A DNA stretch of 12,059 bases from IMG/VR virus record IMGVR_UViG_2713896791_000029, one strand, 5' to 3'. Positions 1 to 6,679 of this stretch are shown here, piece after piece. Below the pieces are notes generated by a model, which saw nothing but the letters and a program-made list of their open reading frames with translations, was not told where the DNA came from and did not search any database. This DNA comes from a virus (taxonomy: Duplodnaviria; Heunggongvirae; Uroviricota; Caudoviricetes). Numbering within the stretch: the stretch's first letter is position 1; each line of letters begins with the position of its first letter. A program made the translations under genes and the position numbers.

Positions 1-1461
1 ATGAAAAAATTACTGCGTCTTTTTTTCCCGCTCTCACTGCGGGTACGTTTTCTGTTGGCAACGGCTGCGGTAGTACTGGTGCTTTCGCTTGCCTACGGAA
101 TGGTCGCGCTGATCGGTTATAGCGTCAGTTTCGATAAAACTACGTTTCGGCTGTTACGTGGCGAGAGCAATCTGTTCTATACCCTTGCGAAGTGGGAAAA
201 CAATAAGTTGCATGTCGAGTTACCCGAAAATATCGACAAGCAAAGCCCCACCATGACGCTAATTTATGATGAGAACGGGCAGCTTTTATGGGCGCAACGT
301 GACGTGCCCTGGCTGATGAAGATGATCCAGCCTGACTGGCTGAAATCGAATGGTTTTCATGAAATTGAAGCGGATGTTAACGATACCAGCCTCTTGCTAA
401 GTGGAGATCATTCGATACAGCAACAGTTGCAGGAAGTGCGGGAAGATGATGACGACGCGGAGATGACCCACTCGGTGGCAGTAAACGTCTACCCGGCAAC
501 ATCGCGGATGCCAAAATTAACCTTTGTGGTGGTGGATACCATTCCGGTGGAGCTAAAAAGTTCCTATATGGTCTGGAGCTGGTTTATCTATGTGCTCTCA
601 GCCAATCTGCTGTTAGTGATCCCGCTGCTGTGGGTCGCCGCCTGGTGGAGTTTACGCCCCATCGAAGCCCTGGCAAAAGAAGTCCGCGAACTAGAAGAAC
701 ATAACCGCGAATTGCTCAATCCAGCCACAACGCGAGAACTGACCAGTCTGGTACGAAACCTGAACCGATTGTTAAAAAGTGAACGCGAACGTTACGACAA
801 ATACCGTACGACGCTCACCGACCTGACCCATAGTCTGAAAACGCCACTGGCGGTGCTGCAAAGTACGCTGCGTTCTCTGCGTAGTGAAAAGATGAGCGTC
901 AGTGATGCTGAGCCGGTAATGCTGGAGCAAATCAGCCGCATTTCACAGCAAATTGGCTACTACCTGCATCGTGCCAGTATGCGCGGCGGGACATTGCTCA
1001 GCCGCGAGCTGCATCCGGTCGCCCCACTGCTGGACAATCTCACCTCAGCGCTGAACAAAGTGTATCAACGCAAAGGGGTCAATATCTCTCTCGATATTTC
1101 GCCAGAGATCAGCTTTGTCGGTGAGCAGAACGATTTTGTCGAGGTGATGGGCAACGTGCTGGATAATGCCTGTAAATATTGCCTCGAGTTTGTCGAAATT
1201 TCTGCAAGGCAAACCGACGAGCATCTCTATATTGTGGTCGAGGATGATGGCCCCGGTATTCCATTAAGCAAGCGAGAGGTCATTTTCGACCGTGGTCAAC
1301 GGGTTGATACTTTACGCCCTGGGCAAGGTGTAGGGCTGGCGGTAGCCCGCGAAATCACCGAGCAATATGAGGGTAAAATCGTCGCCGGAGAGAGCATGCT
1401 GGGCGGTGCGCGGATGGAGGTGATTTTTGGTCGCCAGCATTCTGCGCCGAAAGATGAATAA
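1..1461 (+). CDS. phoQ: Sensor histidine kinase PhoQ, complete (486 aa)
   Basis: Full-length ORF with N-terminal transmembrane segment, periplasmic acidic patch ([10 protein letters not shown]), second TM/HAMP region, H-box ([12 protein letters not shown]) and HATPase motifs ([24 protein letters not shown]). The translation is recognisable as E. coli-type PhoQ, including the C-terminus ...[10 protein letters not shown]. Confidence 0.95.
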
Positions 1462-1951
1462 ATATGTCCTTTTATCACCACAGCAAGGCAACCCATTGAT
1501 TTAATTAAACAACACACACTGCAAAAAGTGCTAAAAACAGCAAATTGACTACACCATTAACTACACCGTTCGGTGCACTGTATGAAACAACGTGGAACAA
1601 ATAGACACAAGAAATATACAGGCGGGTAATCTTTCCAGGGGGAAGCGCACCAATTCATGAGGGGCGTTAATGTCGATATGGGGATCCCCATAACGGGGCT
1701 ACAGGATTTTTTTTCCGGTTAACTGTTAATCAGGCTGGTGGGTTTTACCTGTTCGGTAGGTGTTATGATTATCGTAATACCTTTCCCCCAGTGGGGTAAA
1801 AGCTCCAACCGTAACGATGTTCGTTGTGGTTGCCTTGATGGTCTGCGTGGTCATTATGACCATTCAGAATATGAAGGGTGACGCTTCCGACTTCCTCAAA
1901 TTGAGGTTTCCGAAAATATCAGCGGGTTAGCGATTAATCTGACCATTAATT

Positions 1952-2062: not shown

Positions 2063-2344
2063 TTACCGCCGCAGCCGTTCCGGCTTCTTCCAGTGGTACG
2101 TTATTTTTTCTTTCTCCCGATACAGTTCAACGCGGCGATTGTAGGCCAGCATTTCAAGAACGCGGTTCCGTATGTTGCGCATATCAACGCCATTAAGTTC
2201 TATACCATCACGGCGCATCACTTCCGCTACAACACGCACATAATTTTCAGCGGTCACGCTGTCCGGCTGTGTGGCCTGTTCGTCATGCTGCTGGCTGATT
2301 CCGGCGACGCGGCGGATTAATCCCAGTAGTTCGGCTTCTGTCAT
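2063..2344 (-). CDS. Hypothetical protein (93 aa), last gene before the island's left junction
   Basis: ORF with GGGGG Shine-Dalgarno about 5 nt upstream of the ATG. No motif I recognise. Confidence 0.45.
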   Translation of the reverse strand: MTEAELLGLIRRVAGISQQHDEQATQPDSVTAENYVRVVAEVMRRDGIELNGVDMRNIRNRVLEMLAYNRRVELYREKEKITYHWKKPERLRR

Positions 2345-2401: not shown

Positions 2402-2580
2402 CGTTACGGGGCGGCGACCTCGCGGTTTTTATCTGTTTATGAGAATTTTCCGGCAAAAGTCAGATCCGCTCTTCTTCTCTGTAACAGACTGTTTAACAAT
2501 GAAAATATTAAAAAAAGAAAGGATCTGACACGAGGCATTTTAGCCAGAAAATGCCATTATCAGATCCTTTCTCATTTTTG
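2402..2580 (+). other. Lambda-type cos site: cosN (GTTACG/GGGCGGCGACCT/CGCGG, overhang at 2408-2419) plus cosB-like R3/I1/R2/R1 region
   Basis: Close to collinear with the remembered left end of lambda (GGGCGGCGACCTCGCGG...TTTATGA.AATTTTCCGG...TCTTCTTC...AAAGAAAGGA...CCTTTCTC..TTTTTGT). R-element cores read CAGATCC at 2460-2466 and 2560-2566, and inverted as GGATCTG at 2520-2526, where lambda has CGTTTCC. An AT-rich I1-like segment lies between R3 and R2. Confidence 0.8.
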
Positions 2581-3181: not shown

Positions 3182-3317
3182 GCTTGCATCTTTCCCTTTT
3201 CATTCATAAAGATAGATCAAACAACAAAACCACCACCACCCCCCTGAAAAGGCTCATAAATAGCGAAAATCCGCGAGGTCTCCGCCCCGTAACAGGTCCA
3301 TATGCCGGAAAGGACCC

Positions 3318-3342
3318 GCAAAAAAGCCGGATTTCTCCGGCC
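3318..3342 (-). terminator. Intrinsic terminator (copy a): GCCGGA-loop-TCCGGC followed by U6 on the - strand
   Basis: A6 + GCCGGA tttc TCCGGC on the + strand, so hairpin then U-run on the - strand. Sits 5 nt after the stop of the 137-aa gene. Confidence 0.5.
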
Positions 3343-3773: not shown

Positions 3774-4109
3774 TTATCGCGCCAGCGGCTGAACGGATAC
3801 GCCAGAACCCGCAAAGGCGGCGCATTTTTTCGCGTCGGTGTCGGCGCTCTCAGGCCAGTTAACGGCGGCAATATTGAATATCCCCGTCTTGTAGCACTGT
3901 GCTGATTTCTGCGTCGACGTGTCCACGGGGTACGAGGTCAGATAAACAGCCTTGCCAGATTCCTGACCATCCCACGGCTTAAACTCGCCATTTTCCGCCA
4001 GCATCAGCGGGGTAAATTCCTGAATAACGCCAGCATCAGCAGCAAAATGTACCAGCGTCGTGGATACCTGCTGACTACCTGCAAATAACTCAATGTATGG
4101 AGTGTCCAT
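3774..4109 (-). CDS. Head decoration protein, lambda gpD-like (111 aa)
   Basis: Aligns with remembered lambda gpD: FTPLMLAENGEFKPWDG...DTSTQKSAQCYKTGIF...WPESADTDAKKCAAFAGSGVSV versus TPLMLDTSSRKLVAWDG...DQTSTTLTFYKSGTF...[29 protein letters not shown] Shine-Dalgarno immediately after the stop of the capsid gene. Confidence 0.8.
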   Translation of the reverse strand: MDTPYIELFAGSQQVSTTLVHFAADAGVIQEFTPLMLAENGEFKPWDGQESGKAVYLTSYPVDTSTQKSAQCYKTGIFNIAAVNWPESADTDAKKCAAFAGSGVSVQPLAR

Positions 4110-4121
4110 AGAATCCCCCCG

Positions 4122-5177
4122 TTAACCAATTTTGACGGTAACAAATTTGCGAATATCTGCCGGTACCGGCTGCGGTGCGCTGTGCGTCTGCACGTACTCA
4201 ATCGCCGGATCGCCGTCCTCAATCCAGTTTTTCGGGTAAAACATGTTTTGCGTTGCGCCCGTTCTGACCGCTTCCTGATCCATAATCGCACCATAGGCCA
4301 CCAGCCCTTTATTGTTGGTGTTACCCAGGACCAGCAAATCAGGCTCAAGGAAATATTTTTCGGTGCCGTCGCTGTCAGTGTATTTGCCGGAATAGACGAC
4401 AAGGGCAATATCGCCCAGATAGCCTTTAAAGCTCACCACTTCACCCAGGTTTTTACAGGCCAGTTCTGCGGCGGATTCTGAACCACGGGAAAGGTCGTAC
4501 AGTTCGCGGAATTTTTTAAAGCTGCGTAACGTGCGCCATACTTCAGCGCCCATAATCATGACGTTTGCGGGGCAATTGCCCTGATCAGCATAAAGCTCGA
4601 TGTCATAGATTGGATCGTGTGTTTCTTTATCCAGCTCAGACCATTTTTTACCGTCAGCCTGTTCTATGATATTGCTTTCCGGGATCTTCCAGTCGATTTC
4701 ATAGCGTTCTATGCCTTCGCCCTCAATGAGGTTTTTTCCGGTCGTTACCGCATTCACCGCCAGCCATTCCACGCGTGCCTTAATGGCGTTTATCTGGCGG
4801 CGCATGTTGCCAGTAATCAGGCGCATACGGCGATAGGTAGGATCGTTAAGCTGTGCCGGATCTTCTCCAGCCATGCGCATGATGGTTTTTGTTGGATCGA
4901 TTTCGTGTTTGGGTTTCATGTAGCCTGGTTTAATCGTGCTGGTTTCGTACCCTTTATCGCGCTGGACCTGACTACCCACCATAGGCGAACAGAACGCTGA
5001 CATCGTAACCTCTTCAATGTCCAGGGTGTCCAGCATGATGTTCTGGGTGTTGAAGGTCGCCACGTTCGGGAAAAACAGCGTGGTAAACAGCGGACTGAAT
5101 TTAAATTCTGCAATATCCCCGCGATTCAGGTACGCGAAAAGCTGGTTAGTGTTAAGTGCCGTTGCTTTGCCTGCCAT
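4122..5177 (-). CDS. Major capsid protein, lambda gpE-like (351 aa)
   Basis: Multiple blocks shared with remembered lambda gpE: EFKFSPLF..LFF, PGYMKPKHEI, DPTYRRMRLI, DKETHDPIYDIELYA, FKGYLGDIALVVYSGKY, VLGNTNNKGL.AYGAI.D, YPKNWIEDGDPA.E....SAP. GGAGGTG Shine-Dalgarno; the stop of the upstream gene overlaps the start (TAATG). Confidence 0.9.
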   Translation of the reverse strand: MAGKATALNTNQLFAYLNRGDIAEFKFSPLFTTLFFPNVATFNTQNIMLDTLDIEEVTMSAFCSPMVGSQVQRDKGYETSTIKPGYMKPKHEIDPTKTIMRMAGEDPAQLNDPTYRRMRLITGNMRRQINAIKARVEWLAVNAVTTGKNLIEGEGIERYEIDWKIPESNIIEQADGKKWSELDKETHDPIYDIELYADQGNCPANVMIMGAEVWRTLRSFKKFRELYDLSRGSESAAELACKNLGEVVSFKGYLGDIALVVYSGKYTDSDGTEKYFLEPDLLVLGNTNNKGLVAYGAIMDQEAVRTGATQNMFYPKNWIEDGDPAIEYVQTHSAPQPVPADIRKFVTVKIG

Positions 5178-5383
5178 TATTCACCTCCATGCGTCTGATT
5201 CATGCCCAGCGCCGCGCGTAAATAGGCGCGGACCTGCCAGCCTGTTGACGGCTCAACCATCGCCAGCGGATCAAGTCCTGCCGCAATGCCTGCTTTTACG
5301 TTCTGCCGGTGGCGTTCCTTGAGCGCCTTCACGATGTCGGGGCTTATGTACACCGAAACACCGCCTTTTTTCTCTTCAGCCAT
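5177..5383 (-). CDS. Hypothetical small protein (68 aa), first gene of the head operon; possible ribbon-helix-helix-like fold
   Basis: Translationally coupled to the capsid gene. The N-terminus GGVSVYISPDIVKALKERH resembles a beta-strand plus helix RHH motif, but this is weak. Confidence 0.5.
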   Translation of the reverse strand: MAEEKKGGVSVYISPDIVKALKERHRQNVKAGIAAGLDPLAMVEPSTGWQVRAYLRAALGMNQTHGGE

Positions 5384-5417
5384 AGTAAGAAATTCCTCTT
5401 CGACTTAAAAAATCATA

Positions 5418-5468
5418 ACTGGATGTTTATCCAGTCCTGATTATAATCAGAATTGCATTTTATGCAAT
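5418..5468 (-). promoter_or_regulatory. Three adjacent palindromes overlapping a sigma70-like promoter for the head operon
   Basis: ACTGGAT-gttt-ATCCAGT (5418-5435), perfect 14-bp palindrome CTGATTATAATCAG (5437-5450, contains TATAAT), and ATTGCAT-ttt-ATGCAAT (5452-5468, contains a TTGCAT -35-like hexamer on the - strand). About 35-85 bp upstream of the 68-aa gene. Confidence 0.5.
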
Positions 5469-5590: not shown

Positions 5591-5615
5591 GCAAAAAAGC
5601 CGGATTGCTCCGGCT
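5591..5615 (-). terminator. Intrinsic terminator (copy b): GCCGGA-ttgc-TCCGGC followed by U6 on the - strand
   Basis: About 20 nt downstream of the stop of the 74-aa gene. Near-identical to copies a and c. Confidence 0.55.
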
Positions 5616-5953: not shown

Positions 5954-5979
5954 GCAAAAAAAGCCGGATTTCTCCGGCT
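5954..5979 (-). terminator. Intrinsic terminator (copy c): GCCGGA-tttc-TCCGGC followed by U7 on the - strand
   Basis: Begins 7 nt after the stop of the PerC-like gene. Confidence 0.55.
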
Positions 5980-5985
5980 GTTTGA

Positions 5986-6258
5986 TTAGCTGTCCTGGTA
6001 ATTGCGCCATATTTCATCACCAGCACCATCTATACCCATTTCGGCATAAGTGCGATCGACTGCCTTTTTCAGGTCTCCGAAATTATCCGGCGGCTCCGGT
6101 GCCCTCTGTGCCTTCCTTGAACATTCCAGCCGTCGCATCGTGATGTGATGCCGTTCCTTGTCTGTCTCCACCAGCTGCATGACTTCACCCCATCGCGCCG
6201 CCGCCCTCCGGTAAAAGCCTTTCGCCTCCAGTTCCTCCGCTATGCGGTCATGTACCAT
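5986..6258 (-). CDS. PerC-family-like transcriptional regulator (90 aa)
   Basis: Start placed at the ATG at 6258, which has a GAGGGGGTG Shine-Dalgarno directly after the SSB stop; the longer 130-aa ORF would overlap the SSB gene. The motif AEELEAKGFYRRAAARWGEV resembles the conserved N-terminal signature I recall for PerC/Pch regulators. Family assignment is from memory, not a search. Confidence 0.5.
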   Translation of the reverse strand: MVHDRIAEELEAKGFYRRAAARWGEVMQLVETDKERHHITMRRLECSRKAQRAPEPPDNFGDLKKAVDRTYAEMGIDGAGDEIWRNYQDS

Positions 6259-6268
6259 CGTCACCCCC

Positions 6269-6679
6269 TCAGAACGAAATATCATCACCGTAAGGGTCAT
6301 CGCCTCCCGCTGGTGGCTGATTACCCTGTGTGCCTGTGGTTTTGCGTCTGTTCCCGCCTGGACGTGCCGCGCGGGCACTGATTACGCTGTCTGCGATAAC
6401 CTGCCAGCCCTGCCGCGTTTCTCCGTTCTGTCCGGTCCACTGGCTTACCTGCATCGTGCCGGATACGCTGGCAACATCGCCTTTTTGATGTTTAGCCAGG
6501 AAGTCGGCCTGTTTGCCAAATGCGATGACCGATAACCATAACGTCGCCTGTCCGTCCTGTGCCTGGCTGCATGGCAAAGATACCGCCATACGCGCCAGCG
6601 TCATCGGTGTGCCCTTGCTGGTCTGTTTTACCTGCGGGTCGTCCACCAGCCGCCCGTAAGCGGCTATCTGTGCCGTCAT
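6269..6679 (-). CDS. Single-stranded DNA-binding protein (SSB-like, 136 aa)
   Basis: OB-fold core aligns with E. coli SSB (LWLSVIAFGKQADFLAKHQKGDVASVSGTMQVSQWTGQNGETRQGWQVIA versus [50 protein letters not shown]). Gly/Pro-rich linker and acidic C-terminal tail ...GDDISF (SSB: DDDIPF). ATGA overlap with the upstream gene. Confidence 0.8.
   Translation of the reverse strand: MTAQIAAYGRLVDDPQVKQTSKGTPMTLARMAVSLPCSQAQDGQATLWLSVIAFGKQADFLAKHQKGDVASVSGTMQVSQWTGQNGETRQGWQVIADSVISARAARPGGNRRKTTGTQGNQPPAGGDDPYGDDISF

Follow-up and report, generated by a model that had tools for sequence, protein, structure and literature searches.

The window analyzed here is the whole stretch of 12,059 nucleotides (nt) of the IMG/VR record IMGVR_UViG_2713896791_000029, filed as a virus of the Caudoviricetes, and it was found to be 100% identical to the phoQ-roxA interval of Escherichia coli O103:H2 12009 (NC_013353). 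It carries a chromosomal island of 10.9 kb, a phage-inducible chromosomal island (PICI), located between phoQ and roxA. Within the island lies a block of four genes, namely an open reading frame (ORF) of 68 amino acids (aa), a coat protein related to lambda gpE (E), a head decoration protein related to lambda gpD (D) and a protein of 137 aa. The original prediction, made from the letters alone, described E and D as a coat and cement pair carried without any other head-assembly gene and proposed that such a coat protein could set capsid size or exclude the helper genome. The observation is real save for a scaffold-domain gene which it missed; the feature is known and catalogued, and the proposed role has been tested in the orthologous island EcCICFT073 and is unsupported. 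What is added here is the adjoining scaffold-domain homologue, the satellite-specific clade, the fixed inverted gene order and the ratios of nonsynonymous to synonymous substitution (dN/dS).

The head-gene block and its protein families

The coat protein E matches the Pfam profile Phage_cap_E over its full length (2e-50; 172 bits against a cut-off of 22.9) and shares 44% identity with lambda gpE across 328 aa (E-value 3e-93). Alignment with c1499 of EcCICFT073 gives 96% identity, and the entry 3BQW of the PDB, which is the CFT073 coat protein released in 2008, is near-identical to the island protein. An AlphaFold (AF2) model of E with a predicted local distance difference score (pLDDT) of 81 was compared with known structures; its template modelling (TM) score is 0.91 to 3BQW and 0.82–0.84 to lambda gpE structures, and it superposes on other HK97-fold capsids also. 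E is a coat protein of the lambda gpE family with the HK97 fold, and both the clear homology to lambda and the HK97-like fold expected from structure prediction are borne out.

The decoration protein D was matched to the Pfam family HDPD (1e-17; 64.8 bits against a cut-off of 29.1). With lambda gpD it shares 38% identity over 76 aa and about 30% across the full alignment, and with a phage 21 record 45% over 75 aa, so the phage 21 type is slightly closer than lambda. Among solved structures, the head decoration protein 1TD0 is matched at 1e-13 and lambda gpD at 4e-10, and c1500 of EcCICFT073 is 95% identical. By its profile and structure-sequence matches, D is placed in the gpD/SHP family of decoration proteins. 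Homology of the pair to lambda E and D therefore holds, and only the earlier estimate of roughly half identical was a little generous.

The 137-aa protein adjoining D is related to phage scaffolds. BLASTP aligned it with residues 416–493, at the very C-terminal end, of the protease-scaffold protein gp5 of phage 21 (36% identity over 83 aa; E-value 6e-10), with which it has the tail motif FE(N/H)FM..HSP.AV in common, and with gpC of an Edwardsiella helper prophage (E-value 2e-8). It matches the C-terminus of phrog_53 at 6.7e-9, and lambda Nu3 itself matches phrog_1999, the PHROG family of the 137-aa protein, at 2.7e-26. The direct comparison with lambda Nu3 by hhalign gave a probability of 42%, and the link is clear only against gpC of the phage 21 type. 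The family is tiny, with 8 relatives among 1.8 billion representative proteins, and a database-wide tblastn search in phages gave no match at an E-value of 0.01 or better. Two marks of a Nu3 protein were considered. The protein is homologous to the repeat and tail at the C-terminus of gpC/Nu3, but it is not nested in-frame in a protease gene with a full scaffold domain; the gene is free-standing and about 85 residues align, for which reason the protein is, as judged from sequence, a scaffold-domain homologue rather than a Nu3 orthologue. The label "phage head-tail connector protein", given to its homologues in some genomes by the Prokaryotic Genome Annotation Pipeline (PGAP), was rejected since no hidden Markov model (HMM) supports it. 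A further free-standing protein (P0076, 195 aa) has three tandem Nu3 repeats and a FEQFMQQHSP tail, and it bridges the 137-aa family to the phage scaffolds.

The stop codon of the 68-aa ORF overlaps the start codon of E, and this ORF is kept upstream of E in related islands. Scans against Pfam and NCBIfam gave no match for it, and NCBIfam returned nothing for any gene of the block. Its identification as gpW was tried and rejected, as it has the same length as lambda gpW but no similarity to it.

All island ORFs were compared with Pfam, PHROGs, NCBIfam and, by tblastn, with lambda-type head regions, and no portal, protease or large terminase (TerL) was found; the other small ORFs of the island had no match to lambda W, B, C, FI, FII or A. 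The statement that no other head-assembly genes accompany E and D thus stands for portal and protease and fails for the scaffold, whose C-terminal homologue lies next to D.

The block is bracketed by terminator-like hairpins. Besides the copy at its 3′ end (Table 1), copies are present on the same strand at 5594–5614 and 5958–5978, which makes three copies against 0 expected by chance; the three are nearly identical (GCCGGAG(A/C)AATCCGGCTTTTT) and are situated after the perC gene, a 74-aa ORF and the Nu3-like gene. This layout suggests that the block is expressed by read-through or antitermination. Another hairpin (5417–5436) occurs just upstream of the 68-aa ORF.

Gene order, lineage and selection of the E-D pair

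E followed by D is the reverse of the order in lambda, phage 21, N15, Gifsy-1 and PhiR12_2, and the inversion with respect to lambda in the original prediction was confirmed from the transcription order and from comparison of phage head regions. With the head module of lambda and phage 21 the island shares three protein families (C/Nu3, D or SHP, and E) and a lambda-type cohesive-end site (cos). It differs in its inverted order (E, D, Nu3-like), in a scaffold piece that is free-standing and not nested in the protease gene, and in having no portal, protease, W, FI, FII or TerL.

Among 50,697 phage records, the closest coat protein is at most 47.5% identical to E. Relatives of E with 50–95% identity exist, and every one examined in its context belongs to an island with int, alpA and a replicon in which D directly follows E. 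Contigs were scanned with an alignment of E; a query with a single E protein had matched 21 stretches, none of which was confirmed. The sampled loci comprise 13 with E at least 50% identical, which form the PICI clade, and 47 with E at most 38% identical. All 13 loci of the clade run from int to E and then D without a portal or protease of their own, and they come from Escherichia, Salmonella, Serratia, Edwardsiella, Kluyvera, Superficieibacter, Cedecea and Kosakonia. In nearly all of the 47 distant loci, in contrast, E is preceded by TerL, W, portal and protease; wherever D was detected in them, it comes before E.

In a neighbour-joining tree, the E proteins of nine PICIs fall into a single clade (bootstrap 99), distinct from the lambda/N15 and 21/Gifsy groups. 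The tree of D splits in the same manner as that of E, with a weak node on the PICI side (bootstrap 54). The clade has invariant motifs that differ from the phages, including ARxEWLA and EYxQTHSAPQPxP in E, and in D a shortened N-terminus and a C-terminal SVQPL. Pairwise dN/dS among the PICI copies, for pairs with unsaturated dS, is 0.06–0.16 for E and 0.06–0.34 for D, and the four-gene block was found in 598 of 5,426 complete E. coli genomes. That the pair was captured recently from a helper was considered and rejected, because no phage coat is more than 47.5% identical and the PICI E proteins are a single clade. On the combined sequence evidence of lineage, gene order, dN/dS and occurrence, the E-D pair is an old, selected and satellite-specific module across Enterobacterales, neither a recent capture nor a relic.

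One predicted protein of 463 aa from a Logan contig (P0030) contains Phage_cap_E and HDPD together. It is either an E-D fusion or a product of read-through or frameshift, and is consistent with the order of E then D.

Five of the 13 PICI-clade loci lie inside lambda-type head genes of helper prophages. The interrupted gene is E in four of them (L009 and L010 in E. coli, L021 in Cedecea and L022 in Kosakonia) and the portal gene in the fifth (L013 in Edwardsiella tarda), and in these embedded loci the E-D pair of the island is only a few kb from D and E of the helper itself. These islands, of the 11capE type (PMC10111431), share with the present one the clade with E then D and, for L009, a related small terminase (see below), and they differ by sitting in helper late genes and not at a chromosomal site. 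An island of Salmonella enterica with E and D of the same clade (L011; GCA_005980655.1, 4292–11812) is inserted into a cluster of P2-type tail genes, with the baseplate/fibre genes on one side and the tube genes on the other, so that lambda-type coat genes occur there within a myovirus-type prophage.

The island and its packaging unit

The features of the window are collected in Table 1. The island is an EcCICFT073-type phage satellite and is already catalogued, as the supplement of Fillol-Salom et al. 2018 includes it among the PICIs, for strain 12009 at 1325875–1336965 and with a length of 11.1 kb. A second copy of the attachment (att) repeat lies about 27 nt past the end of the window, and the two copies are 10,848 bp apart. 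Every gene from the att repeat of the window to its end is on the minus strand, and the order of transcription is integrase, AlpA, small ORFs, RepA-type helicase, SSB, PerC, the 74-aa ORF, the 68-aa ORF, E, D, the 137-aa ORF, the small terminase (TerS) and the 93-aa ORF. The marks of a PICI that were observed include a terminal integrase with direct att repeats at the same site as EcCICFT073; alpA with a replication module, recognized by gene content from the helicase and SSB; a small size without tail, lysis, portal or large terminase genes in family scans of all ORFs; and a packaging-redirection gene with cos sites. The satellite nature assumed by the original prediction is in agreement with the integrase, alpA, replicon, att repeats and known PICI. 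Helper-dependent induction, packaging and high-frequency transfer are known from experiment only for the orthologue EcCICFT073 (PMC6092414).

Table 1. Features located in the 12,059-nt window, in order of position.
Feature	Position	Strand	Basis or remark
PhoQ	1–1461		flank outside the island
att repeat, 21 bp, ACTACACCATTAACTACACCG	1548–1568	.	island end on the phoQ side; direct repeat in the source record
93-aa ORF	2063–2344	-	last island gene before att; phrog_1561, labelled function unknown
Second lambda-type cos, inverted	2403–2477	+	exact cosN GGGCGGCGACCT
Nu1-type small terminase (TerS), 180 aa	2600–3142	-	Pfam Phage_Nu1 3.6e-22
Lambda-type cos (cosQ-cosN-proximal cosB)	3243–3322	-	just upstream of the terS-like gene
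Terminator-like hairpin GCCGGAGAAATCCGGCTTTTT	3321–3341	-	3′ end of the block; terminator scan
Homologue of the gpC/Nu3 scaffold C-terminus, 137 aa	3348–3761	-	third gene, after E and D; probable c1501 orthologue
gpD/SHP-type head decoration protein (D), 111 aa	3774–4109	-	Pfam PF02924; c1500 orthologue
gpE-type major capsid protein (E), 351 aa	4122–5177	-	Pfam PF03864 Phage_cap_E; c1499 orthologue
68-aa ORF	5177–5383	-	first gene of the block; probable c1498 orthologue; phrog_3255, labelled function unknown
PerC-family regulator	5986–6258	-	Pfam PerC 1.2e-42; source-record annotation
SSB	6269–6679	-	Pfam SSB 1.7e-16
RepA-family helicase	7128–8528 (5′ end approximate)	-	Pfam AAA_25 2.4e-43 on the intact source-record gene
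AlpA-family regulator	10286–10474	-	Pfam Phage_AlpA 5e-17; annotated coding sequence of 62 aa
Tyrosine integrase	10830–12059	-	Pfam Arm-DNA-bind_3 and Phage_integrase; source-record annotation

EcCICFT073 (Fillol-Salom et al. 2018, 2019), which serves as the model for Gram-negative PICIs and is of the cos type, has the same phoQ/roxA site, the same integrase family and the same order of 68-aa ORF, E, D, 137-aa gene, two cos sites and 93-aa ORF. The present island differs from it by a RepA-type helicase in place of a primase and by a full-length Nu1-type TerS in place of RppA. This TerS is 36% identical to lambda Nu1 across its full length and occupies the position of RppA (c1503) in EcCICFT073. 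Its classification as an Rpp protein was rejected, as no PDB match and no similarity to the 144-aa protein of CFT073 were found. It is 79% identical to TerS of the helper-embedded island L009, whose E is only 56% identical, and this indicates that exchange of the packaging gene is independent of the E-D pair; the 93-aa ORF also has a 76% identical copy in L009.

The two cos sites flank the TerS gene in inverted orientation, a layout common to EcCICFT073. The site next to the block shares 81% identity with lambda cos across 80 nt (E-value 3e-17), with a cosQ-like segment and one mismatch in cosN. Both sites and the small terminase adjoin the block and were left out of the original prediction. 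With lambda-type cos sites and a Nu1-type TerS, the helper must have a lambda-type large terminase. Four copies of the island amount to 43.4 kb, about 90% of the lambda genome, in agreement with the published packaging into heads of full size.

Two runs of N (7356–7419, 64 letters; 8429–8478, 50 letters) replace longer stretches of the source record, with about 310 bases missing in total, due to which the helicase gene is broken in the window and the coordinates are shifted with respect to NC_013353. An ORF of 342 aa (9200–10228, minus strand) has an odd composition and overlaps several short ORFs, and RefSeq retains only a partial pseudogene there; it is probably not a real gene.

Possible role of the block

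The genetics of the block have been published for EcCICFT073, in which c1499 was named a capsid protein and c1500 a head decoration protein (PMC6092414). Deletion of c1499 or c1500 left lambda interference and transfer by the resident helper unchanged, a c1499::cat island transfers well, no phenotype of c1499 was found and the DNA packaged with lambda is phage-sized (PMC6092414); by our own arithmetic on Table 1 of that paper, the island deleted for c1499 is transferred about 2-fold less to each of the four recipients. Both interference and the redirection of packaging were mapped to RppA (c1503), and expression of single genes had no effect on lambda (PMC6739421). A synthetic island with c1498-c1501::cas9 was still mobilised (PMC10530653). 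In every published test the island was marked in c1501 (c1501::tetA) or in c1499 (c1499::cat), which left no tested island with an intact block, and the size of the DNA was checked with lambda only. Our literature searches found no later functional study of PICI E or D.

These results go against the coat protein as a determinant of capsid size, as a barrier to the helper genome or as a requirement for transfer. Dispensability of E and D for transfer and for helper interference had been named in the original prediction as the outcome that would speak against it, and this is what was reported for EcCICFT073 with its 96% identical E.

From the protein families, the lineage and selection of the pair and the packaging signals beside it, we infer that E, D and the scaffold-domain protein contribute accessory head subunits which work with the machinery of the helper, and this is the best explanation to which we give a probability of about one half. 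As the head genes of the island are only of the shell type, any shell needs portal, protease, large terminase and tail from the helper, a point on which the original prediction was right. When a lambda-type helper is induced, the island would supply coat, cement and scaffold-domain subunits of its own, and these would join proheads nucleated on the portal and protease of the helper. The helper TerL, steered by island TerS to island cos, would then fill phage-sized heads with about four island copies. According to the genetics of the orthologue, the contribution would be accessory and would not set capsid size, interference or transfer, and packaging specificity and interference would reside in TerS/Rpp together with the cos unit.

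Several points weigh against such a contribution. Transfer of the orthologue stays intact after single deletions or replacement of the whole block (PMC6092414, PMC10530653), due to which any contribution must be small or conditional, and the genes expressed singly had no effect on lambda (PMC6739421). The Nu3-like gene is present in some PICI lineages only, others having an AlpA-like gene or nothing after D; it is thus not essential to the role of E and D, and this counts against a strict three-gene assembly module. Finally, PICI E is about equally distant (39–48%) from all sampled E types of phages and helpers, and it gives no sign of being tuned to co-assemble with one helper.

A coat protein which acts as Ccm of SaPIbov5 is the next explanation to be considered, and we regard it as doubtful. 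Here, given the right helper, the island coat, alone or mixed with that of the helper, would build shells on helper portals that are specific to the satellite and possibly smaller, to the advantage of the 10.9 kb island and to the exclusion of the helper genome. Ccm is 24% identical to the coat of its helper, takes the pentamer positions and redirects assembly (PMC8569155), and like the present island SaPIbov5 has a satellite coat homologue of HK97 fold without portal or protease. In the block, E has diverged in step with D and both have motifs particular to the clade, a truncated scaffold homologue adjoins them, and the published islands were all marked in c1501 or c1499 with DNA size checked by lambda only. 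Ccm, however, forms pentamers and small isometric capsids, whereas c1499 gave no size change or interference, and the present island adds a decoration protein and a scaffold-domain gene. The DNA was phage-sized, if with lambda only, and induction of CFT073 gave no band of island monomer (PMC6092414). A size-neutral marker raised transfer 10- to 100-fold, as it would for multimers in full-size heads (PMC6092414); the c1498-c1501::cas9 island transfers (PMC10530653), and interference maps to RppA (PMC6739421). In its general form, the E-D pair, with the Nu3-like protein where present, would build satellite-made shells on helper portals, the islands being "shell-only" capsid formers; this also is unlikely, and such a role could have escaped notice because the markers sat inside the block and lambda was the only phage with which the size of the DNA was examined.

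Less weight still is given to the idea, raised in PMC10111431, that island E is a back-up copy which substitutes for a helper E interrupted by an embedded island. E is the gene most often interrupted, and the five clade loci inside lambda-type head genes (four in E, one in portal) speak in its favour. The present island and EcCICFT073 are chromosomal, however, and excision of an embedded island restores helper E; D is always carried too, yet it is never the interrupted gene, and island E is only about 40–46% identical to E of its own helper or helper type.

We find it equally improbable that E and D poison or sequester the assembly components of some lambdoid phages other than lambda and phi80 and so protect the host population. 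PICIs commonly interfere with phage morphogenesis, and a defence function fits genes that are under purifying selection yet show no transfer phenotype. But single-gene expression did not lower plaquing of lambda (PMC6739421), deletion mutants still blocked lambda (PMC6092414), and E has no toxic or truncated feature, being full length with a normal HK97 fold in the AF2 model. That the block is a decaying remnant of an ancestral phage without current function, to which the missing laboratory phenotype (PMC6092414) could point, is very improbable, as 598 genomes have the ORFs intact, dN/dS stays far below 1 between lineages that are 50–96% identical, and the clade extends over at least eight sampled genera with an invariant order of E then D.

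The E-D pair is a textbook feature of enterobacterial PICIs, and the observation was already known. The gene pair was described in 2018, coat genes were counted in 21 of 29 reference Gram-negative PICIs in a survey (PMC10111431), and Ccm of SaPIbov5 was already a published coat homologue that redirects assembly (PMC8569155), so the novelty claimed for the pair does not hold. The capsid-forming PICIs (cf-PICIs) of EcCIEDL933 type have the same int-alpA-rep backbone and a coat protein of their own, and they carry in addition a portal, protease, head-tail connectors, HNH and both terminases, taking only tails from the helper. From that set the present island has the small terminase only, and it is not a cf-PICI.

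What remains is the puzzle of a coat-plus-cement pair that is held by purifying selection in satellites of many genera despite having no laboratory phenotype. The scaffold-domain neighbour, the satellite clade with its inverted order and the marking of all published islands inside the block make this question sharper. If the shell-only role were true, these islands would be intermediate between the classical PICIs and the cf-PICIs.

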